The notes under the pieces are model-generated. The model ran no database searches. It saw only the letters and a program-made list of their open reading frames with translations, and was not told the DNA's origin. A DNA stretch of 32,000 nucleotides from Candidatus Saccharimonadota bacterium (GTDB lineage Bacteria > Patescibacteriota > Gracilibacteria > UBA1369 > 2-02-FULL-48-14): positions 120,001 to 152,000 of the forward strand of contig OZ246396.1 of the NCBI GenBank assembly GCA_965230905.1. The letters run 5' to 3'. The position numbers were made by a program, and so were the translations under genes. Position 1 is the stretch's first letter, and each line of letters begins with the position of its first letter. Positions 18,962-28,160 of this stretch are shown here, piece by piece.

Positions 18962-21208
18962 CTAGCGTGAGAATCCAAAGTTTTCTTTTGCTGCACTGAG
19001 TCCTTCTATTTCCTCGATGAAGTTGAGGTAGGTGGATTTTAGTATCTCCACACAAGTGCTTGCAGCGACTTCACCCGAGTCGTTGACTCGTTTGAGTACG
19101 AGCTTCTTGATTCGCAAAGGAATTTTTTTGAGAGCCCGTGCAAAGAACAAACTTTCTGAGGTCTTGTTCATGAGTGCATCTGAAACGGTAAGAACGGCTT
19201 GTTCATCGTTCAGTTGCATTAAGGTGAGTGCCGCCATCTGTTTAATGAGTGGATCGCTGCTCAACAAGTGTTTTTGTGCATAGGCTTTCTCCCACGTAAA
19301 CCCTAAAGAGCCGATGACATTGAGGGTTGCTAAAACATTTTCGCGTGAGCTTCCTGACATGATTTGTACAAAATACTTCATGAGCAGAGGTTTTAATTCC
19401 GCGAACTGCCAAATGGAAATTATAGCAGCGGCCTGGACTTTTGGGTCGGTGCTGTCTAGATGAGGCCTCACATAAGCCACTATCCCCCTATCATGGAAAA
19501 ACCGCATGGCTGAAATGGCTCGCGTGCTCACTTCCGGATTCTTGTCATTTACAGTATTGCGCAAAAAGGTAATAACCTTATCTGGATCAAAATCACCCAG
19601 CTGATCCAAAATAAGTAATTTCAGTTCGGTGTCTTCTTCTTCCAAAAATATTTTCTCGTAGGCTTCAATAAGATTCAACCGAGTGAAGGGGAAAGCTTCG
19701 AGTTGTTTGTTTAAATCTTTGAAGGAATGAATGGCTTCCACGATGGAATATTTTACGGTTGAGTTGTGCTTCTTAAACATCTCTAGCAGGTTTGGTAGCA
19801 CTTCAATGTTATTGATTTTTCCCAAAGCAAAAACAATTTTTCGCACCGTTTCTTCGTCCAAGTTTCTCCAAGAAATAAGCTTCATCAATTCCTGAACTCC
19901 CACTTCGTGGTAGGCTTCTTCGGCGAGATTTTCAATGGCTCCATGCATGTCCACTTGATTGGTGCTTCCCAAATTTAATAATACCTGGTGGAGATAAATC
20001 TGCCTGATGTAGGCAAAGAGACCTGCATTTATGAGGAGCAGAACACAGGAGACTCCCAAGATCCATATGTTAGCCAGATACTCGGTGAGTATGGCAAGCC
20101 CCGCCCCAGCCACCAACATGGCAGTGGCATCTGAATTCCCACTAATAAAAGTGGCTACTCGATTCCGTATAGAATTGGGCAGCGCCGTGTAGGCTTCCAT
20201 GCTTGAATTCGAGAAAATGGAGTAGCCCACAACAGAGGTCACCAGACATACGACGAAAGCAAACAGTGGCGTTGGGAATAAAAAGAGCAGAAGAAAAGGA
20301 ATGAACACTAAAACAGGAGAAAGGAGCAGCGAGTTGAGTACTCCGGCTTTCTTTGTGATTTTATTTTGGACTAAAAGGGCGAGACCCAACAAAAGACTGG
20401 TGGCTATATTCAAGTACCCTGAAATTTTTACATATTCTTCCTCAGAGAGCTGTTCTTCTGCAATTTTCTGGAACTCGAAATCGCTGATCCACCACACCAC
20501 ATTGAAGATGGTCAGCGCAACGAAGAGCGTCTTAGCCAAGTTCGTTTTTCTAAAATCCACAAATTCTTTCTTGAGCACATTCCATTCAGAAACTTTAGGC
20601 CCCTCCTCGGGCACGGGCGCCAGTTGTTTTTCATAGCAGCTCTGAAGGAAGATGAGGTTGATGGCTGCCAAAACAAGACTTCCACAAACCAAGAGGATCA
20701 AATCCTCCAAATCCAAAACTTCTTCGAGCAAGCTAGAAGCTAAACCCGCAAGCACTCCACCCAAACTGTAAGCGGAGGCATAGTGTACAAAGTTAGCCTT
20801 GGACTCAAATAAGGTACTCAAACTTCCTGCCAAGCGCCAAATCACCGTTCCCCCTAAAATGAGATAGAAAAAAGTACTGACTACCAGGAAAACTGTGTAA
20901 ACCCAGGTGTTCCCGGATTTCATCAGCAGATAATTAGCAAAAAATAGCGCTGCCCCGATCCAAGAAAAGATCTGCAAGAGCTTCGCCAAACTTATTTTTT
21001 TCATCATAGCTGCGATGAAAATTGTCAGTAGAGAGCCACAAGCTGCGCACACTATGTAAATGTAGGGTAGGTAGTCCGCCCCCACCCGTTCCACAAAAAG
21101 CACCCGCCCCACAATGCCGGAGAGGGCTGCCCCAAAGGTGTAAGCCACAAAAATGGGCAGTAGCAAAAGCAGTTTCTTCCATTTTTCTTTTTGCTCCCTG
21201 GACGCCAT
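18962..21208 (-). CDS. Polytopic transporter-like membrane domain (MFS / ADP-ATP-carrier-like, about 12 TM) fused to C-terminal HEAT-repeat domain
   Basis: The N-terminal 400 aa consist of successive hydrophobic helices. The C-terminal 330 aa have HEAT/PBS-lyase-like repeats (ALGKINNIEVLPNLLEMFKKHNSTVKYSIVEAI; NDKNPEVSTRAISAMRFF; DSTDPKVQAAAIISIWQF; SSDPLIKQMAALTLMQL). Confidence 0.65.
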   Translation of the reverse strand: MASREQKEKWKKLLLLLPIFVAYTFGAALSGIVGRVLFVERVGADYLPYIYIVCAACGSLLTIFIAAMMKKISLAKLLQIFSWIGAALFFANYLLMKSGNTWVYTVFLVVSTFFYLILGGTVIWRLAGSLSTLFESKANFVHYASAYSLGGVLAGLASSLLEEVLDLEDLILLVCGSLVLAAINLIFLQSCYEKQLAPVPEEGPKVSEWNVLKKEFVDFRKTNLAKTLFVALTIFNVVWWISDFEFQKIAEEQLSEEEYVKISGYLNIATSLLLGLALLVQNKITKKAGVLNSLLLSPVLVFIPFLLLFLFPTPLFAFVVCLVTSVVGYSIFSNSSMEAYTALPNSIRNRVATFISGNSDATAMLVAGAGLAILTEYLANIWILGVSCVLLLINAGLFAYIRQIYLHQVLLNLGSTNQVDMHGAIENLAEEAYHEVGVQELMKLISWRNLDEETVRKIVFALGKINNIEVLPNLLEMFKKHNSTVKYSIVEAIHSFKDLNKQLEAFPFTRLNLIEAYEKIFLEEEDTELKLLILDQLGDFDPDKVITFLRNTVNDKNPEVSTRAISAMRFFHDRGIVAYVRPHLDSTDPKVQAAAIISIWQFAELKPLLMKYFVQIMSGSSRENVLATLNVIGSLGFTWEKAYAQKHLLSSDPLIKQMAALTLMQLNDEQAVLTVSDALMNKTSESLFFARALKKIPLRIKKLVLKRVNDSGEVAASTCVEILKSTYLNFIEEIEGLSAAKENFGFSR

Positions 21209-21813: not shown

Positions 21814-21888
21814 GCGGGTGTCGTATAGTGGCTATTACCACAGCCTTCCAAGCTGTTGAGAGGGGTTCGATTCCCCTCACCCGCTCCA
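21814..21888 (+). tRNA. tRNA-Gly (anticodon UCC), CCA encoded
   Basis: Folded by hand. Acceptor stem GCGGGTG/CACCCGC. D stem GTAT/TTAC with an AGTGGCTA loop. Anticodon stem ACAGC/GCTGT with loop CT-TCC-AA. T stem AGGGG/CCCCT with loop TTCGATT. Discriminator T, then CCA. Confidence 0.9.
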
Positions 21889-21890
21889 TT

Positions 21891-21924
21891 AAAAAACGGT
21901 GGCCCAAAGTGGCCAGCGGTTTTT
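21891..21924 (+). terminator. Imperfect hairpin with T-run after tRNA-Gly
   Basis: AAAAAACGGTGGCC-CAAAGT-GGCCAGCGGTTTTT. The core is a 5-bp GC stem, with an extended imperfect stem that ends in T5. Confidence 0.35.
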
Positions 21925-21931
21925 AACCGTA

Positions 21932-22080
21932 GTTGAAGGAGGGGAAGAGAACCCTCTCGCGCAAGCGAGTGGGTTCAGAAGCTCGAGCGAAGTGAGTGAA
22001 ATCTGTGCACGTGCACAGATTTCCGAACGTGCGATGAGCGCATTCAAGCGAAGCGCAGAATATTCCCCTCACCCGCTCCA
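21932..22080 (+). repeat. Partial second copy of the tRNA-Gly 3' portion, interrupted in the T loop by a 117-nt hairpin-rich insert
   Basis: GTTGAAGGAGGGG (21932-21944) matches tRNA GTTGAGAGGGG. ATTCCCCTCACCCGCTCCA (22062-22080) is a 19/19 match to tRNA nt 21870-21888. Between them (21945-22061) the TTCG of the T loop is replaced by 117 nt. Confidence 0.8.
21998..22023. promoter_or_regulatory. 26-nt perfect palindrome GAAATCTGTGCAC|GTGCACAGATTTC (CACGTG centre), 144 nt upstream of the first Cys/His-motif paralogue
   Basis: Read directly from the sequence. It is related to the palindrome at 24908-24929. Confidence 0.6.
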
Positions 22081-22110
22081 AAGAAAACTAAGATACCCCG
22101 AATGTTTTTT

Positions 22111-22139
22111 TTGACTGTTTCTGTTTTTTATTGTTAAAT
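22111..22139 (+). promoter_or_regulatory. Candidate promoter for ORF 22167-22721
   Basis: TTGACT (22111-22116), then a 17-nt spacer, then TTAAAT (22134-22139), located 28 nt upstream of the ATG. Confidence 0.4.
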
Positions 22140-22166
22140 GTTAAACTGATCTTTTGAAGCTCACTT

Positions 22167-22721
22167 ATGCAAGTCCCTCGTGAACTTAGCCATTTCCGCC
22201 CCTACTTTGGAGAAAAATGCACAGGCGAAGAGCGGCATCTCGTTTCTTTGCTAGGAAGTACATTTTCAGACCTCCAAGCTTTTATGGATCATCTAAGAAA
22301 AATTGATGTCCATCCTTGCGCTAAAATGCATGAGAACCCAAACGGGGAAATTCACCAAAATCGTTGCCCTGTTCGTGCTATGAACGCTTGCTGTGCGCAT
22401 CAGCAAGAATGGCAATTGGAGGGCGATCGTGCAGTATGGCATTTGCTGGATGGGGCTATCGTACTTGCTTATCATTTTCATCTGCTTTCTCTACAAGAAC
22501 GTCGCACCCTAGAAGTCAGAAAGTCTGTGGCTACGGGCACTCTTGTAGCAACAGATCTGAAAGCTTCGATTCATTATTTCAATGTTAGTGGACCAAATGA
22601 AGCTCCCGTGACTAACGCATCTATAAGAACTACAGAGCTAGCGGCAGGTCGAGAACTTTTAGCCATTCGAGATGAACTGCTGGTGTTATTTGAGGGTGAA
22701 GTCTCAAAATATAGACTCTAG
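22167..22721 (+). CDS. Uncharacterised protein, paralogue 1 of a Cys/His-motif family (CxKxHE ... CPx5ACxH) with conserved C-terminal LAIRDEL helix
   Basis: Motifs PCAKMHEN, RCPVRAMNACCAH and IRTTELAAGRELLAIRDELLVLFEG align with SCGKAHEA, ECPRWSNNAACGH and IRAQETALGKQVLAIRDELVGLLE of ORF 25219-25689. Confidence 0.7.
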   Translation: MQVPRELSHFRPYFGEKCTGEERHLVSLLGSTFSDLQAFMDHLRKIDVHPCAKMHENPNGEIHQNRCPVRAMNACCAHQQEWQLEGDRAVWHLLDGAIVLAYHFHLLSLQERRTLEVRKSVATGTLVATDLKASIHYFNVSGPNEAPVTNASIRTTELAAGRELLAIRDELLVLFEGEVSKYRL

Positions 22722-22756
22722 TTTTTCTTTTCCTTGGATTTTGACATAATAGGTTT

Positions 22757-22936
22757 ATGAAAACCTTTAACTTTTCAGCGGCGGTCTACAAAGATGGCAA
22801 GTTCTATGTAGCCGAGTGTCCACAAGTTGGCACGGTGAGCCAAGGGGAATCTGTTGAATTGGCTTTGGCTAATTTGAAAGAAGCTAGTGAATTGTATTTA
22901 GAAGAGTTCCCCGAATACACTAATAAGAGTTTATAA
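22757..22936 (+). CDS. HicB-like (UPF0150) small antitoxin-type protein, 59 aa, not in the ORF track
   Basis: Translated by hand as MKTFNFSAAVYKDGKFYVAECPQVGTVSQGESVELALANLKEASELYLEEFPEYTNKSL. The pattern Y.A..P...G..tQG.s.eEAl.N.keA..l.lEE is typical of the HicB N-terminal fold. Its stop overlaps the next start (TAATG). Confidence 0.65.
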   Translation: MKTFNFSAAVYKDGKFYVAECPQVGTVSQGESVELALANLKEASELYLEEFPEYTNKSL

Positions 22937-23946
22937 TGGATGAGCATCTAATTTCAAAAATTTGCGTGCTGTACGATTTAGGTGAACCTACAAGTGAGGT
23001 CCGTGCTGTTAAAGGTGGGCTCATCCATAAAATGTGGCGGCTTCAAACAACTAAAGGGGAATATGCGATCAAGGAGTTAAACCTTAGAATCCAAGACTTA
23101 GATTCAAACATTTCCTCTGAAAACAGTATTCAAAAAGCTCAGGAACTGACTGAATCCATTGCTCAAGCATTTTTGGAAAGGGGCGTCCCCGCTGTAACGG
23201 CACTTAAAGCTGGATCTGAATATGTTTCAAAAATTGCTGACACATTGCTGATTGTATTTGAATGGGTGGAGGGAACAAGCCTATCTGTACAAGCAGCTTC
23301 CAAGGAGCAGGCTTTTTTAATCGGAAAAACACTAGCGAAAATCCATGAAGTAAATTTGGCCATTCCTGGTCTAGACACGAATACTTTAACGCTATTTTCC
23401 AATGAACATTGGGAAGTTCTTTTTGGGAAATTTTTGGACAAGTTTCCTGAATCTGCTTCATGGCTTTCAAAGGAGCTTGTGCTCGACTGGAATCAAAAGG
23501 CCAAAGATATCATTCGTAACCTACAAGGCCACATGGTTATTAGTCACGGCGATATAGATCAAAAAAATGTGATTTGGAAAGATGCCGAGCACCCTTTTAT
23601 AATTGACTGGGAATCTGCAGGACAAGTGAATCCTGGCTTGGAATTGATGGATGCCGCCCTTAATTGGGGCGGATTGGTGAGCGGTGAAGTAGATGAAAAC
23701 AGCGTGAAGGCTCTTCTGGATGGCTATAAGAGTGAAGGGGCTGAGATTCTCGAAAGTGGAAACGAGCTCCTGAGCGCTTGCATTATAAAATGGCTTCCTT
23801 GGCTTGAATTCAATATGCAAAGGGCGGTCGATTCAGCGAAGGATTATGAGGAACAAAAACTAGGATTTTTCCAGACTCAAAATACCTTGCGAAATTTGGA
23901 TTTAATCACAAAGAACTTTAATACATGGGCAGACTTTTTGGGCTGA
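22936..23946 (+). CDS. APH/CotS-type phosphotransferase (protein-kinase-like fold)
   Basis: GGLIHKMWRLQT..YAIKEL gives the nucleotide-binding loop and Lys. VISHGDIDQKNVIW is the HGDxxxxN catalytic loop. FIIDWESAG is the metal-binding Asp. Confidence 0.8.
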   Translation: MDEHLISKICVLYDLGEPTSEVRAVKGGLIHKMWRLQTTKGEYAIKELNLRIQDLDSNISSENSIQKAQELTESIAQAFLERGVPAVTALKAGSEYVSKIADTLLIVFEWVEGTSLSVQAASKEQAFLIGKTLAKIHEVNLAIPGLDTNTLTLFSNEHWEVLFGKFLDKFPESASWLSKELVLDWNQKAKDIIRNLQGHMVISHGDIDQKNVIWKDAEHPFIIDWESAGQVNPGLELMDAALNWGGLVSGEVDENSVKALLDGYKSEGAEILESGNELLSACIIKWLPWLEFNMQRAVDSAKDYEEQKLGFFQTQNTLRNLDLITKNFNTWADFLG

Positions 23947-23965
23947 CTTTGACCTCTCCTCATTT

Positions 23966-24847
23966 CTAGTTCTTCTTTCTATAGCTCTGGATGAACACTC
24001 CCAACACAATAAATAATAATCCGATTATTGAAGAACTTAGGATAGGCTCCCCGACAAGAAAGTAGATGAAGATCAGGGATACAAAAGGCGTTAAAAAGAC
24101 CAAGTTGGAAACCTTGGCCGTCTCTCCAACTTCTAAAGCTTTGAACCAGAAAACAAAGGCGAGACCATTCGTGAAGAATCCAATCCAAGCCAACCCTGCT
24201 ACTTGCTTCATGTCTAGGCTGGGTATTTCTGAAAAGAATAGGACACTGAGCAGAACATAAATGAAGCCAAAAACATAATAGCAAAACATGGAAGAGAAAA
24301 CTTCATATTTTAACTTTTTACCGAGTACCGAGAAGAGACCGTAAACAAGAGCTCCTGAGGCTGCCATAAGGATTGCGGTGAGGTTTAGATTATCCAACGA
24401 CATAAGTTCTCCCTTGGAAACCACGATTGCGACTCCAACGAAGGAAAGTAGGATGGAAATGAATGTACGCCAAGTGAACTTCTCTTTTAAAAGAAGTACT
24501 CCAAAAATAACCACCATTACCGGCCACAAATAGTTAACCACAAAGGCTTCTTGTGCTGAGGTTCTTTCGATGGCTCCAAATAAAAATAAATAATACAAAA
24601 AGCATCCTAGAAAGCCCATTCCTGCCAGCTTCCCTATGTCTTCCTTTTTGTAGGTGGTGAGATTCTTTAACTTGCCTTGAAACAGCATAATCAAAAAAAG
24701 CCCAAAAATAGTAAAGGGGAAACTGTAAAAGATAAGCTGAATGCTTGATATGTCTTGCAGTATGAGCTTGCTTACTGAAGCTGTAGAACCCCACAGCAGA
24801 ATAGCGAGAGCCGTGTAGACGTAGGCGAGCTGGGACTTCTTAACCAT
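23966..24847 (-). CDS. EamA/DMT-family transporter (10 TM)
   Basis: LAYVYTALAILLWGSTASVSKLIL is a typical EamA start. There are two repeated 5-TM halves, and the length is 293 aa. Confidence 0.8.
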   Translation of the reverse strand: MVKKSQLAYVYTALAILLWGSTASVSKLILQDISSIQLIFYSFPFTIFGLFLIMLFQGKLKNLTTYKKEDIGKLAGMGFLGCFLYYLFLFGAIERTSAQEAFVVNYLWPVMVVIFGVLLLKEKFTWRTFISILLSFVGVAIVVSKGELMSLDNLNLTAILMAASGALVYGLFSVLGKKLKYEVFSSMFCYYVFGFIYVLLSVLFFSEIPSLDMKQVAGLAWIGFFTNGLAFVFWFKALEVGETAKVSNLVFLTPFVSLIFIYFLVGEPILSSSIIGLLFIVLGVFIQSYRKKN

Positions 24848-24907
24848 GCACCGATTATAATACTTTTATTTAAGTTTTTAACAGTTTTTTCTCTTCAATA
24901 TATTAGC

Positions 24908-24929
24908 AAAGTCTGCACGTGCAGACTTT
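24908..24929. promoter_or_regulatory. 22-nt perfect palindrome AAAGTCTGCAC|GTGCAGACTTT in the divergent eamA / paralogue-2 intergenic region
   Basis: Read directly from the sequence. It shares the TCTG(T)GCACGTGC(A)CAGA core with 21998-22023. Confidence 0.6.
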
Positions 24930-24936
24930 AGTTTTC

Positions 24937-25098
24937 CCGTGAATTTGACCGTTTTAATTCATATATTCACGGTATTTTTGCGAATAGGCGTGAATTTAAA
25001 ATTCAGCTCTGTGGGCCCCTTTAGCGTATTCCTGAATTTTGACCAACAAAGCGTAGTAAATCTTTTCGTGCTTGAACAAGGCGAGGTTTCACGGAATC
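24937..25098. repeat. Cluster of C[CG][GT]TGAAT boxes in both orientations (candidate operator/iteron set)
   Basis: CCGTGAATTTGACC at 24937-24950. ATTCACGG at 24965-24972 (inverted). CGTGAATTTAAAATTCAG at 24989-25006 (internal 7-1-7 palindrome). CCTGAATTTTGACC at 25031-25044. TTTCACGGAATC at 25087-25098 (inverted). Confidence 0.55.
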
Positions 25099-25218
25099 AC
25101 TAAATCATTGTCGGGCTCAGAATCTGCCCAGCTGCCGGGAGTGTTCATAAATTGGTAGCTGTGATTATTACACATTATGTTGTATGATGCTGGCTTAACT
25201 GATTAGTGAGCACTTTAA

Positions 25219-25689
25219 ATGGAAAGAAAAGACTCGGTATTAGAACAGGACGCCACGATGGATATTTTAGGCGAATTAAAATCGATCCGTGTAATCTCCT
25301 GTGGGAAAGCACATGAAGCAACGGAAACTTATATGAAATTTTACGAATGTCCACGCTGGAGCAATAACGCTGCCTGTGGACATCTATTTGAATACGATTC
25401 ACCGGTTCAGATCGTGCTCAGGCGGGCCGGTACTTTAGCTTTTTCTTTGGGCCGGCAAACAGAAGAGGATCGACAAGCTAAAGAGGCTAAGTTAAGTGAG
25501 CTGTATCATGCTTTACACGGTTTAGACAGCCAGGCGGCGGACTATTATCATATGTTGCGGTTGAATGGGGATGATGGTTTAACAGAAATCACCGTACAGC
25601 AGATTCGGGCCCAGGAAACAGCCCTTGGGAAACAAGTGCTCGCCATTCGGGACGAACTCGTTGGTTTATTGGAGATAGTTATCCAATAA
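25219..25689 (+). CDS. Uncharacterised protein, paralogue 2 of the Cys/His-motif family
   Basis: See 22167-22721 for the alignment. The start may be the ATG at 25258, which has AGGA 8 nt upstream. Confidence 0.7.
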   Translation: MERKDSVLEQDATMDILGELKSIRVISCGKAHEATETYMKFYECPRWSNNAACGHLFEYDSPVQIVLRRAGTLAFSLGRQTEEDRQAKEAKLSELYHALHGLDSQAADYYHMLRLNGDDGLTEITVQQIRAQETALGKQVLAIRDELVGLLEIVIQ

Positions 25690-25730
25690 GAGAGCTGGAC
25701 GAAGTGGCCTCCGCTGAGTAAGCTATCGCC

Positions 25731-26660
25731 ATGGATTGGTTTTCAATAATCATGATTGTCGGAGGCCTCACCTTGTTTGAAACGGTGAGCAGTATCGATA
25801 ATGCTATTATTAATGCTGAGGTGCTGAGCACAATGGGAGCTAAGGCTCGACGATGGTTTTTGCTCTGGGGAATATTGTTTGCGGTGTTTGTGGTTCGAGG
25901 AGTTTTGCCTTGGCTGATTGTATTTTTTACGGCGCCTGAACTTGGTTTCTTTGGTTCTCTCACGGCGACCTTTAGCAATGATCCAGCTGTAATCGAAGCC
26001 ATTGAATCTTCTGCCCCTATCCTACTGAATGGAGGCGGAGTCTTCCTCCTTTTCCTCTTCTTCCATTGGCTCTTTTTGGAACCAAAAAACTATGGACTGC
26101 GTGGCGAGAAATTCTTTCACGCTCAAGGAGTTTGGTTTTATGCCGTGGTGTCCATTCTACTCTGTCTCATCGTTTGGTACAGCCTACAGGTTGACCCAAA
26201 CATGGCCTTTGGGGCTGTAGTGGGTTCAACGGCCTTCTTCATCACCCACGGGTTTAAAGAGAATGCTGAAAAAGCCGAGGCGGATATGCTTAAGAAAGGA
26301 GGTATGTCGGATGTGAGCAAAATTTTGTACCTGGAAGCAATTGATACCACTTTCTCTATTGATGGAGTTTTGGGAGCTTTTGCCTTCACGCTTTCGGTTC
26401 CTCTCATTCTCATTGGGAATGGATTTGGAGCCATTGTAGTGCGTCAGCTCACCATTAGTAATATCGACCGCATTAAAAAATACATCTACCTTAAAAATGG
26501 TGCGATGTACTCCATATTGATTCTGGGAGGAGTGATGCTTGCTCACAGTTTTGGTGCCCATATCCCTGAATGGTTTTCTCCAGTAAGCACCGCCCTTGTG
26601 ATTTTGTTTTTCTTTATCAAATCAAAAAAGGCGATCCCGTTTTTACCTAAGACAGCCTGA
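25731..26660 (+). CDS. DUF475 / TerC-like integral membrane protein
   Basis: MDWFSIIMIVGGLTLFETVSSIDNAIINAEVL matches the LE.S.S.DNA..NA pattern of DUF475/TerC-type proteins. The protein is polytopic. Confidence 0.7.
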   Translation: MDWFSIIMIVGGLTLFETVSSIDNAIINAEVLSTMGAKARRWFLLWGILFAVFVVRGVLPWLIVFFTAPELGFFGSLTATFSNDPAVIEAIESSAPILLNGGGVFLLFLFFHWLFLEPKNYGLRGEKFFHAQGVWFYAVVSILLCLIVWYSLQVDPNMAFGAVVGSTAFFITHGFKENAEKAEADMLKKGGMSDVSKILYLEAIDTTFSIDGVLGAFAFTLSVPLILIGNGFGAIVVRQLTISNIDRIKKYIYLKNGAMYSILILGGVMLAHSFGAHIPEWFSPVSTALVILFFFIKSKKAIPFLPKTA

Positions 26661-26666
26661 TCACAG

Positions 26667-26771
26667 TTTTTAGTGGGACCTTTCTGAAATACATAAACTA
26701 AAAGGAAGCGGCGAAAAAGATCATGATCTTTTTCAGAGCGCTCCTGTGTTTCAGAAAGGTCCCACTAAAAA
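26667..26771. repeat. 105-bp nested inverted-repeat element: 23-bp perfect terminal arms enclosing a 22-bp perfect palindrome
   Basis: TTTTTAGTGGGACCTTTCTGAAA (26667-26689) is the exact reverse complement of 26749-26771. The inner palindrome GAAAAAGATCATGATCTTTTTC lies at 26713-26734. The element starts 7 nt after the DUF475 stop. Confidence 0.85.
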
Positions 26772-27274
26772 AATCGCCCTAAATGTTTCTAATCGTTGTT
26801 CAGCATCAGGTGAGAGCTTGGAGTAAAGGTGCAGAACATTGCTGTAACTGAGCTTTTACTTAATCTGTTGATCGTTTCCCGAGGGAAAGACCGGCCAGAA
26901 AAAGGTATCTGTCTATTCCTTCTTTCTGAGTACTTAAACCCACTGCAGAACGAGGTGATAGTGGCCAACATATCTTTGGGAAGATGATGTCCATCCAGGC
27001 TTACTAGGCGATTAGGAACTTAGGGCGCAGGAGGTGAAAAGTGGTGCTAACCTGATGGGTTGTCCGATTTTTGGGTACTTCGTGACCGAAAATCGGTTCG
27101 GGGGTTCCATCGTAGGGGCTTTATACCTTTTGTGCCGTAAGTTTCGCGCCGTGTTTTCAAAGATCATCATATTATTGTACCACGACTTGCTAGTTTTCGC
27201 AAGGGGCTTGAAATGAGCTTTGCATGGCAGTACAATGTTTATGACGATCCTAGCGATGAGAAACCATCTCGGAT
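26772..27274. other. ORF-poor region of about 0.5 kb with dense local hairpin potential (candidate structured ncRNA, strand unresolved)
   Basis: Only two 60-aa ORFs without a convincing RBS. Hairpins include CAGAAAAAGG..CCTTCTTTCTG (26896-26929), CCGATTTT..AAAATCGG (27063-27095) and ATTGTAC..GTACAAT (27174-27236). The region is bounded on the right by a bidirectional terminator-like hairpin. Confidence 0.3.
27242..27256. repeat. 15-nt exact direct repeat copy A (TGACGATCCTAGCGA)
   Basis: Identical to 27351-27365, which lies inside the tRNA-like gene (its central stem-loop). Confidence 0.9.
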
Positions 27275-27306
27275 AAAAGGCCCTCTTCGTGAGAGCCTTT
27301 TATTTT
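27275..27306. terminator. Bidirectional intrinsic-terminator-like hairpin
   Basis: AAAAGGCCCTC-TTCGT-GAGAGCCTTTTATTTT, a 7-bp stem with one mismatch flanked by an A-run and a T-run. The T-run is good on the plus strand and weaker (TTTTATCC) on the minus strand, 6-11 nt after the CCA of the tRNA-like gene. Confidence 0.5.
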
Positions 27307-27311
27307 GTCAG

Positions 27312-27385
27312 TGGTGGACCCGCGGGGAGTCGAACCCCGGTCGCTTAGGTTGACGATCCTAGCGACGGATGCCAATCCCGGGCCC
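27312..27385 (-). ncRNA. 74-nt tRNA-like element with tmRNA-TLD-like topology (acceptor stem with G3:U70, T arm, encoded ACCA; no cloverleaf, no tag region)
   Basis: The minus strand reads GGGCCCG-GGATTGGCATCC-GTCGCTAGG-ATCGTCAA-CCTAAGCGAC-CGGGG-TTCGACT-CCCCG-CGGGTCC-A-CCA. The acceptor stem (7 bp) and T arm (5 bp, 7-nt loop) are canonical. The D and anticodon arms are replaced by a 4-bp/4-nt mini-hairpin and one long hairpin. Confidence 0.6.
27351..27365. repeat. 15-nt exact direct repeat copy B (TGACGATCCTAGCGA) inside the tRNA-like gene
   Basis: Identical to 27242-27256. Confidence 0.9.
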
Positions 27386-27431
27386 ACAAAACACTGACTC
27401 ATCTGTTATAACTGACCGACCTTTATAAAAA

Positions 27432-27475
27432 CCTGAAATTTTCCTGAATTATTTCTGAATTAATCCTGACAAATC
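27432..27475. repeat. Four tandem 11-bp repeats (CCTGAAATTTT CCTGAATTATT TCTGAATTAAT CCTGACAAATC)
   Basis: Read directly from the sequence. The period matches one helical turn. The array lies 47-90 nt upstream (minus-strand sense) of the tRNA-like gene. Its CTGAAT core is shared with the boxes at 24937-25098. Confidence 0.8.
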
Positions 27476-27578
27476 GCGCAATTCTCACTGTGCAAATGTT
27501 CAAACCCCTCCGCCAAGTTTAACCTGAAAGTTCCGGACCGGTCCGGGATGCCAACCTGTAAAATCATTTCTAGGCAGT

Positions 27579-28160
27579 ATGACGAAAATGTGTAAAACTG
27601 AGTGCATGCTCCCCCACGGCCCCAACCCCTACTTCACCCTTTCATCTGAATTGCTGCATGAGCGAACGTATGTGCGTTTTTTGAAAGACAAAGTTCAAAT
27701 AGATGAGATTAAAAAAGACTACAGCTACATGGACGTGGACGACAGTGTGGGCATTGTGGCGCTGAATGAAAAAGGCGAGATCGCGTTGGTGGGTCAGTGG
27801 CGCTACCCCATTAAAGAATACAGGTGGGAAATTCCCGCAGGCATGAGTGAACCGGGCGAGACTCCGCTTGAGAACGCGCAGCGGGAACTTATGGAAGAGT
27901 CTGGCGTGAGTGCTTTGAAATGGACGGCGTTCGGGTCGTACCAAATGGACGGGTCTAAAATGAATCAACAAAATCACCTGTTTTTGGCGGAGCAGCTTAC
28001 GGTGGGTGACAACGCGCCGATGATAGACGAGAAATTAGAACGGCTGTGGATTCCGCTGGAAGAAGCCATCGCTTTAGTGGAAGCGGGCGAACTCCGGGAT
28101 GGACTCACCGTGATTGCCTTGTTTAGAGTTCAATCGTATCTCCAAAAGCAGGGACGATAA
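27579..28160 (+). CDS. Nudix hydrolase (ADP-ribose pyrophosphatase-like)
   Basis: Nudix box GMSEPGETPLENAQRELMEESGV (Gx5Ex7REuxEExGu). The start is uncertain (Met codons at 27579, 27588 and 27606). The 3' end overlaps the convergent beta-CASP gene by 38 nt. Confidence 0.85.
   Translation: MTKMCKTECMLPHGPNPYFTLSSELLHERTYVRFLKDKVQIDEIKKDYSYMDVDDSVGIVALNEKGEIALVGQWRYPIKEYRWEIPAGMSEPGETPLENAQRELMEESGVSALKWTAFGSYQMDGSKMNQQNHLFLAEQLTVGDNAPMIDEKLERLWIPLEEAIALVEAGELRDGLTVIALFRVQSYLQKQGR

Follow-up and report, generated by a model that had tools for sequence, protein, structure and literature searches.

Zinc-binding anti-sigma factors (ZAS; RsrA, ChrR, RslA) are small cytoplasmic four-helix proteins that hold zinc through Cys and His residues and can sense the redox state. 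Mixed Cys/His ligands gathered in a short segment are likewise found at the iron-sulfur (Fe-S) sites of CDGSH/mitoNEET, IscR-type and Rieske-type proteins. Among structured RNAs, the RtT element (rttR) of the Escherichia coli tyrT/tyrV operon directly follows a tRNA and ends with the last 19 nt of that tRNA, CCA included; rtT RNA arises by processing of the tyrT transcript, and a link with the stringent response has been described (bioRxiv 10.1101/2024.07.17.603846). These systems are compared here with a locus of a bacterium assigned to Candidatus Saccharimonadota, known from a metagenome-assembled genome from groundwater (Hainich samples). The stretch analyzed, referred to below as the window, comprises 32,000 nt (positions 120,001 to 152,000 of contig OZ246396.1, assembly GCA_965230905.1) and carries two diverged genes for an uncharacterized Cys/His protein, each lying downstream of a perfect palindrome.

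A previous inspection of the letters alone, called the sequence-only reading below, had taken the palindromes either for operators through which the two proteins regulate their own genes or for hairpin-type ends of a mobile cassette. We favor a different reading, to which we give a probability of roughly 0.6: the two genes belong to an unnamed, probably metal-binding family that resides at a tRNA-linked locus, and the palindromes are separate, strain-specific hairpins.

A rare family with an invariant Cys/His set

Paralogue 1 (22167..22721, plus strand; 184 aa, NCBI AAB383_04885) and paralogue 2 (25219..25689, plus strand; 156 aa, NCBI AAB383_04865) are 30% identical over 141 aligned residues (BLASTP E 1e-14), so that their description as paralogues stands. 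An exhaustive profile search of 1.84 billion representatives at E <= 1e-3 returned 23 proteins, 21 of them from outside this genome. The named sources of these proteins are Peribacteria, Peribacteraceae and, once, Uhrbacteria, and the family is apparently restricted to bacteria of the Candidate Phyla Radiation (CPR). Word-indexed protein searches with each paralogue returned the query itself and nothing else, and the same type of search with a 22-sequence alignment recovered only three members. When the motif pattern was back-translated and compared with genome contigs, only two were matched, both from Candidatus Peribacteria; among viral contigs the pattern gave two chance matches full of stop codons, and an alignment-based scan gave none.

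Two family alignments, one of 22 and the other of 24 members, define the conserved core. Six residues are invariant in all 22-24 aligned members, namely C51, H55, C67, C76, H78 and D130 in the numbering of paralogue 1, and N73 is conserved in at least 90% of them; the Cys/His positions are thus conserved among the homologues. The resulting pattern is C-x-[K]-x-H-[E/D] ... C-[P]-x4-N-x2-C-x-H, with the ligand spacing C-x3-H ... C-x8-C-x-H, and in three members the three invariant Cys are the sole cysteines of the protein. The alignment bears out the motif C-x-K-x-H-E and the C-terminal helix I-R-x2-E..G..RD-x-L that had been noticed in the two window proteins; the second motif of the sequence-only reading, C-P-x5-A-C-x-H, captured the right idea but was one residue out of register, and corresponds to C-P-x4-N-x2-C-x-H (C67, N73, C76, H78). 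The loop that holds this set is the best conserved part of the protein, with a mean pairwise identity of 0.37 against 0.16-0.23 in the helices. The residues K53, R70, R154 and R168, which stand beside the ligands, are conserved as well. The family is acidic (pI < 7 in 21/24 members), and no signal peptide was seen when the translations were read by eye.

That the proteins could not be placed in a named family proved correct across Pfam, NCBIfam, PADLOC, PHROGs, PDB sequences and known folds. The Pfam matches of the two paralogues are at chance level (E 0.09-0.24), any given model of Pfam-A, NCBIfam, PADLOC or PHROGs is matched by at most one of the 22-24 members (best E 0.007-0.05), and no family member matches a PDB sequence beyond chance. 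The family is real, rare, previously unnamed and uncharacterized.

Predicted structure and comparison with known metal sites

AlphaFold2 models built on the family alignments have a mean predicted local distance difference test score (pLDDT) of 87.5 and a predicted template modeling score (pTM) of 0.84 for paralogue 1, and of 90.6 and 0.86, respectively, for paralogue 2. In both models long helices are packed as a bundle, and a loop of about 40 residues, mostly with pLDDT > 90, holds the ligands; the only beta structure consists of isolated bridges in this loop. Foldseek, whose use on models of both proteins had been proposed earlier, found no fold match: searches of the PDB with both models and of BFVD with paralogue 1 retrieved only generic helical bundles (E of at least 0.4, TM-score of at most 0.41). 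Neither Pfam nor Foldseek detected a helix-turn-helix (HTH), ribbon-helix-helix (RHH) or other DNA-binding fold.

The proteins of the family are probably metal-binding, as judged from the invariant Cys/His set. This set bears out the small metal-binding module of the sequence-only reading; the metal itself, zinc in that reading, may be Zn or Fe-S, which sequence does not distinguish. We propose that each protein is a cytoplasmic bundle of long helices, in which the loop, some 40 residues long and joining the first long helix to the second, would present Cys, His, Cys, Cys and His together with the near-invariant Asn, while the invariant Asp lies in helix 3. One Zn2+ ion or one small Fe-S cluster would act as the metal centre that staples the loop onto the bundle. 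The gene stands alone, with no conserved operon pointing to a function, and its downstream partners differ in every lineage: they include genes for DUF475, Methyltransf_21, an extracytoplasmic function (ECF) sigma factor, an unknown protein with DUF4153, FolP, a Na/Ca exchanger (Na_Ca_ex) and a HhH-GPD glycosylase. The protein may act by itself through protein contacts, for instance as a factor that responds to metal or redox state, rather than bind DNA and regulate its own gene.

Of the described proteins, small helical regulators stapled by zinc, such as the ZAS proteins, come closest to the family in the way it would work, yet the family fails the ZAS motif and is a new one. The likeness consists in a small helical protein with Cys/His ligands and in the position of one member (P0011), whose gene lies directly upstream of a gene for an ECF sigma factor. 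However, the ZAS motif H-x3-C-x2-C is absent from the family alignment, which has C-x3-H ... C-x8-C-x-H instead; there is no match to Pfam zf-HC2 and no anti-sigma structure among the Foldseek matches, and a sigma-factor gene is adjacent in only 1/8 contexts. The C-x8-C spacing with a nearby His also recalls the C-x8-C-D-G-S-H of CDGSH proteins, which we take as a lead and not as a test. Against this likeness, the family has no sequence match to CDGSH, IscR or Rieske proteins, and its model is all-helical with a loop, unlike the beta-rich NEET and Rieske folds. A nuclease of the HNH/His-Me finger type, superficially suggested by H55..N73..H78, was considered and rejected: CxxC pairs and a Pfam match are missing, and the models contain only the isolated beta bridges mentioned above.

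In a second genome, GCA_964645935.1, two divergent family members (loci L005 and L007) are likewise found at separate loci. One member of that genome is encoded directly upstream of an ECF sigma factor and a DUF5667 protein, and the member at L007 lies 1.5 kb from a gene for a Y1 (IS200-type) transposase.

A variable segment at tRNA-Gly

The locus begins at a tRNA-Gly(TCC) gene (21814..21888, plus strand; called by ARAGORN, 59.4 bits with the Rfam tRNA model). The same gene lies directly upstream of a family gene in three genomes, those of the window and of the loci L006 and L009, the latter two keeping synteny with the window to either side. The tRNA gene shows 100% identity among the window, L006, L009 and a further locus, L020, and forms the left boundary of a variable segment. 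By blastn against L009, this segment occupies 21889..25714, with boundaries at 21888/21889 and 25714/25715, and measures 3.8 kb here against 590 bp in L009. Similarity resumes at 25715, 16 nt before the start of the DUF475 gene. The flanks are well conserved at the DNA level (tRNA 100%, DUF475 80% identical), and inside the segment no DNA similarity to L009 is found except for a repeat of the tRNA 3' end at 22062-22082. The GC content is 0.39-0.43 across 22-25 kb, compared with 0.45-0.52 in most nearby flanks.

The family gene also contrasts with its neighbors at the protein level. Relative to L009, the DUF475 protein is 90%, the beta-CASP RNase 92% and the NUDIX protein 80% identical, whereas the family protein is 28-30% identical; relative to L006, neighboring genes reach 54-76% and the family gene 31%. 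By position, paralogue 1 is the counterpart of the L006 gene, which follows the tRNA trailer described below, and paralogue 2 that of the L009 gene, which precedes DUF475. Such hyperdivergence may mean that the gene has evolved rapidly where it stands or that distant alleles have replaced it. Given a gene about 30% identical in a tRNA-linked segment whose neighbors are 80-92% identical, the two copies in the window would best be read as two old, divergent alleles or paralogues kept at a tRNA-linked hotspot, with a hicB-like open reading frame (ORF), a kinase gene and eamA lodged between them.

The arrangement resembles tRNA-linked islets and integrase attachment (att) sites in that the variable DNA starts exactly at the tRNA 3' end and a direct repeat of the T-loop-to-CCA segment of the tRNA lies nearby. 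It differs from them in two respects. No integrase is present among the genes called between window coordinates 11.2 kb and 41.8 kb, and the repeat bounds a trailer of only 173 nt and not the 3.8-kb segment, with no second repeat at the far end; further or decayed copies of the tRNA 3' end are absent from 22091-25740.

An RtT-like tRNA-Gly trailer

The tRNA-Gly gene is followed by a 192-nt trailer (21889..22080, plus strand), recognized by its direct repeat, its RNA fold and a framework common to L006 and L020. The 3' 19 nt of the tRNA, ATTCCCCTCACCCGCTCCA, at 21870-21888, recur as an exact second copy at 22062-22080, and palindrome 1, GAAATCTGTGCACGTGCACAGATTTC, a perfect palindrome of 26 nt (21998..22023), lies between the two copies at the tip of the variable hairpin of the trailer. 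In the window the order of elements is a terminator-like hairpin (21900-21915), GGGAAGAGAACCC, a hairpin tip, GGGTTCAGA, a variable long hairpin and the 19-nt repeat. Copies of the trailer are present in three Peribacteria genomes (window 21889-22080; L006 7768-7883; L020 230-14, minus strand) and share the framework GGGAAGAGAACCC, hairpin tip, GGGTTC(G)A, variable hairpin and AT-ATTCCCCTCACCCGCTCCA. The first hairpin keeps its GAACCC/GGGTTC base and has a different tip in each of the three genomes. The position of the second hairpin is reduced to a minimum in L006, carries another hairpin, about 100 nt long, in L020, and carries palindrome 1 in the window, where the palindrome falls within a 60-nt segment (21976-22035) that is missing from L006 and whose last 7 nt repeat the preceding AGCGAAG. 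The predicted fold of the window trailer has an energy of -83.6 kcal/mol (z -6.3 against shuffles), and that of the L020 trailer a z of -4.8. In a metagenome scan for the 3' junction of the trailer, only L020 was a true match; two others were chance matches within a coding gene.

In its placement the trailer agrees with E. coli RtT: it stands directly 3' of a tRNA and ends in a repeat of about 19 nt of the 3' end of that tRNA, as do the copies of L006 and L020 and E. coli tyrV/rttR. Common strings are GGGGAAG..GAGAA, GGTTCGA, CTCGAGCG and GCGAAGCGC..AG, and the E. coli unit has a palindromic hairpin, CGTTGCCGCAGGCAACG, at the position equivalent to palindrome 1. The Rfam model of RtT (RF00391) aligns with the window trailer end to end at 19.6 bits, below the gathering score of 45 (E 0.19-1.9), and this covariance model gave no match to the short L006 copy. 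In pairwise comparison with the E. coli unit, the L006 trailer scores 31 against a shuffle mean of 15 and maximum of 25 (z 7.5), with part of the score due to T-loop consensus; the window trailer reaches z 2.7 and L020 z 1.0, with T-loop consensus again accounting for part of the match. The differences are that a single unit is present here as opposed to 3.14 tandem repeats in E. coli, that the tRNA is Gly and not Tyr, that the host belongs to the CPR and that the score stays below the Rfam threshold. Palindrome 1 is best read, from its sequence context, as capping the variable hairpin of a tRNA-Gly trailer that resembles RtT.

Palindromes 1 and 2 and their relatives

Palindrome 2, AAAGTCTGCACGTGCAGACTTT, is a perfect palindrome of 22 nt (24908..24929) in the divergent intergenic region between eamA and paralogue 2. 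The start codons of paralogues 1 and 2 follow palindromes 1 and 2 at distances of 143 nt and 289 nt, respectively, and the two palindromes span 2932 bp. Both occur where the sequence-only reading had placed them, and beyond chance: 100 shuffles of the window produced no palindrome with arms of at least 11 nt and a mean of 0.04 with arms of at least 10 nt. That reading had also assigned them a common CACGTG core. They are indeed related, since their half-sites agree at 8/11 ungapped positions (binomial p 1.2e-3); however, what they share is the 10-mer TGCACGTGCA and not CACGTG only, and the hexamer by itself is not enriched in the window (5 found, 5.6 expected). Beyond the palindromes, the upstream regions of the two paralogues have nothing in common (local alignment scores of 27 and 21, where shuffles average 24).

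A census of long palindromes covered 42 kb of the 1.3-Mb genome, that is, the window and the 10 kb to its right. In addition to palindromes 1 and 2 it contains palindrome 3, GAAAAAGATCATGATCTTTTTC, a perfect palindrome of 22 nt with a TCATGA core (26713..26734), and no other long palindrome was found in the remaining ~37 kb. Palindrome 3, unrelated in sequence to palindromes 1 and 2, forms the tip of a near-perfect hairpin of 105 nt (26667..26771) with outer arms of 23 nt, TTTTTAGTGGGACCTTTCTGAAA, and a fold z of -9.7, situated just after the DUF475 stop. This hairpin is a strain-specific insertion because it is absent from L009 and L006, and it is not a canonical terminator because a U-run precedes and an A-run follows the stem in both orientations.

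The short repeats near palindrome 2 suggest that the DNA between eamA and paralogue 2 has a regulatory role of its own. The palindrome lies 27 nt upstream of a promoter-like TTAAAA-16-TATAAT on the minus strand (24881-24854) that faces eamA. The stretch 24937-25045 is dense in short repeats, namely CCGTGAAT-N20-ATTCACGG, the direct repeats GTGAATTTGACC / CTGAATTTTGACC, and a 7-1-7 palindrome, TGAATTTAAAATTCA (24991..25005), which stands among several GTGAAT/ATTCAC repeats. Two candidate identities were tried and rejected. Palindrome 1 fits the LexA box CTGT-N8-ACAG and palindrome 2 does not (CTG-N6-CAG); palindrome 2 has the U-rich 3' flank of a terminator on the plus strand, yet no plus-strand gene ends there.

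What the palindromes may be

Eight homologue loci were checked, six of which offer 150-400 nt of readable upstream sequence, the syntenic L006 and L009 among them. No CACGTG-centred or comparable palindrome occurs in the stretches of up to 400 nt upstream of the family gene at L005, L006, L007, L009, L013, L014 or L016, and only 32 nt can be read at L011. A survey of the neighborhoods of homologues, proposed earlier as a check, thus shows that at these loci the palindrome does not accompany the family gene, an outcome that the sequence-only reading had itself named as refuting it. In the reading that we prefer, the palindromes would be strain-specific, hairpin-forming intergenic sequences and not a feature of the family, acting as RNA or DNA hairpins or as sites of a factor. 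Because the core is shared, palindrome 2 may be a copy of palindrome 1 or a site for the same factor.

Several points weigh against this reading. Independent hairpins do not explain the 8/11 match of the half-sites (p ~1e-3), which leaves room for a common binding protein, conceivably one of the paralogues themselves in this strain. Palindrome 2 is without a homologous region for comparison, and the census amounts to 42 kb of a 1.3-Mb genome. The likeness of the trailer to RtT falls below the Rfam threshold (19.6 against 45 bits), and the L006 copy has no match. Distant paralogues may have replaced the gene, in which case its hyperdivergence would not stem from fast evolution at the site. For the protein, metal binding is deduced from conservation alone, in which Zn and Fe-S look the same, and action through protein contacts is a guess.

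One alternative is that palindromes 1 and 2 are operators of one dimeric DNA-binding protein of this strain that is not the family protein; eamA and/or paralogue 2 would be controlled from palindrome 2, and the trailer site would be a second target or a decoy. We consider this unlikely. The shared 10-mer and the 8/11 match argue for it, as do the perfect dyad symmetry typical of operators, the 7-1-7 palindrome and GTGAAT/ATTCAC repeats around palindrome 2, and the location of palindrome 2 in a divergent promoter region, its centre about 70 nt upstream of the eamA start and beside a good -35/-10 pair. Yet no transcription factor gene lies beside the palindromes, which are not conserved in other genomes, and between TCTG and the core each arm shows a 2-nt indel relative to the other palindrome, which would shift the half-site spacing by 4 bp. 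Moreover, about 95 nt separate palindrome 1 from the nearest promoter-like -35 downstream of it, and palindrome 1 is embedded in a structured RNA element.

It is distinctly unlikely that the palindromes are copies of a small dispersed repeat, of the repetitive extragenic palindromic (REP) or miniature inverted-repeat transposable element (MITE) kind, that inserts into intergenic hairpins. All three palindromes are intergenic; palindrome 1 sits in the 60-nt segment that is extra relative to the relatives and ends in the 7-nt repeat of AGCGAAG, and palindrome 3 in the extra 105-nt hairpin with its 23-nt terminal inverted repeats, as this explanation would have it. However, only two related copies occur in 42 kb, both within one variable segment, palindrome 3 is unrelated in sequence, and at the position of palindrome 1 a different hairpin is found in L020, so that this site may simply be a variable stem.

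Autoregulation, in which the Cys/His paralogues themselves would bind the palindromes as operators, one per gene, is very improbable. The numerical agreement of two related palindromes with two paralogues, each palindrome upstream of one gene, speaks for it, and the conserved K53, R70, R154 and R168 beside the ligands could be cited in its favor. Against it stand the lack of any comparable palindrome at six other family genes, positional orthologues included, the distances of 143 and 289 nt to the start codons, with palindrome 2 nearer to eamA than to paralogue 2, the mostly acidic nature of the proteins and their lack of a detected HTH, RHH or other DNA-binding fold, and the fact that palindrome 1 is part of a tRNA trailer.

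Finally, that the palindromes are recombination or transposition ends of hairpin type (IS200/IS605, integron attC) flanking a mobile 2.9-kb cassette is extremely improbable: the block between them is lower in GC than most nearby flanks and absent from L009, and a family member in L007 has its Y1 transposase gene 1.5 kb away, but the difference from L009 extends over 21889 to 25714 and not from palindrome to palindrome, palindrome 1 is no cassette end because the trailer is contiguous on both its sides (L006 lacks only the 60 nt of 21976-22035), nothing trailer-like adjoins palindrome 2, no further tRNA 3'-end remnants occur in 22091-25740, no transposase (Y1 or other), integrase or TnpB gene is found among the genes called between 11.2 and 41.8 kb, and no integron core sites (GTTRRRY/RYYYAAC) were seen when the sequences were read by eye.

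Neighboring genes and non-coding features

A promoter-like TTGACT-17-TTAAAT, read from the sequence 3' of the trailer (22111..22139, plus strand), may serve paralogue 1; a promoter scan missed it because the scan demands A at position 2 of the -10 hexamer. Between the paralogues follow a 59-aa ORF (22757..22936, plus strand), a gene for an APH-family phosphotransferase, or kinase (22936..23946, plus strand; Pfam PF01636, E 1.9e-16), and one for an EamA-family transporter (23966..24847, minus strand; Pfam PF00892, E 1.2e-40). The right-hand conserved flank begins with a gene for a DUF475/TerC membrane protein (25731..26660, plus strand; Pfam), the product of which is the one 90% identical to its L009 orthologue. 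The earlier assignments of the kinase, EamA and DUF475/TerC are solid in Pfam; 'hicB-like' for the 59-aa ORF is weak, since its similarity to HicB_lk_antitox/UPF0150 (E 0.015-0.043, 14-16 bits) remains below the Pfam gathering cut-offs near 27, and no HicA-like ORF adjoining it was seen in the ORF list of the window. The stop codon of this ORF overlaps the kinase start (ATAATG), which suggests that the ORF and the APH-family kinase are translationally coupled. To the left of the tRNA, a 748-aa protein (18962-21208, minus strand) combines an N-terminal half resembling a major facilitator superfamily (MFS) transporter with HEAT repeats, by weak Pfam marks; this unusual MFS-HEAT fusion is absent from the syntenic L006 locus.

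To the right of DUF475, a tRNA-like gene of 74 nt (27312-27385, minus strand) was missed by ARAGORN. It has the acceptor stem GGGCCCG/CGGGUCC with a G3:U70 pair, the discriminator A, an encoded CCA and a normal T arm. In the place of the anticodon arm stands a 6-bp stem that closes a 15-nt loop. Both ends of the Rfam model of transfer-messenger RNA (tmRNA) are matched (38.3 bits, gathering score 47, E 1.4e-13), with only 25 nt where tmRNA has a body of about 300 nt. A terminator follows at 27273-27300. In L009 the equivalent stretch is occupied by a 180-aa ORF, of which no remnant is found in window 26600-27650. The non-coding DNA at 26769-27209 (L009 1638-2056; parts of L006 9165-9608) is 84% identical to L009, against 80-82% for the flanking coding genes, and contains in the window, L009 and L006 an inverted repeat whose arms measure about 28 nt (GAAACTTAGGGCGCAGGAGG ... 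CCTTTTGTGCC.TAAGTTTC). It has no Rfam match and is a candidate for an undescribed non-coding RNA.

Implications

Many genes of CPR bacteria have no assignable function, and the present analysis singles out among them a compact family whose ligand set is sharply defined, whose confidently predicted structure has no match in the PDB or among predicted viral protein structures, and whose evolutionary pattern is unusual, with about 30% identity at a locus whose neighbors are 80-92% identical. This combination makes the family a tractable target both for biochemistry, which can address Zn or Fe-S, and for population genomics. The analysis also does away with an attractive but wrong view of regulation, with the palindrome as the operator of the family. 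If the trailer is truly homologous to the poorly understood rtT of E. coli, these copies would be the first rtT relatives outside enterobacteria.

A bolder combination, which we hold to be rather unlikely, would make the family a new metal-dependent factor under diversifying selection or lineage exchange at a tRNA-Gly hotspot of CPR bacteria and the trailer a true RtT homologue, with the paralogues of this strain possibly recognizing the TGCACGTGCA palindromes. Were it true, the Cys3His2 helical-bundle family could serve in conflict with hosts, phages or competitors, and RtT-like tRNA trailers would be an ancient and widespread class of RNA rather than an enterobacterial curiosity.

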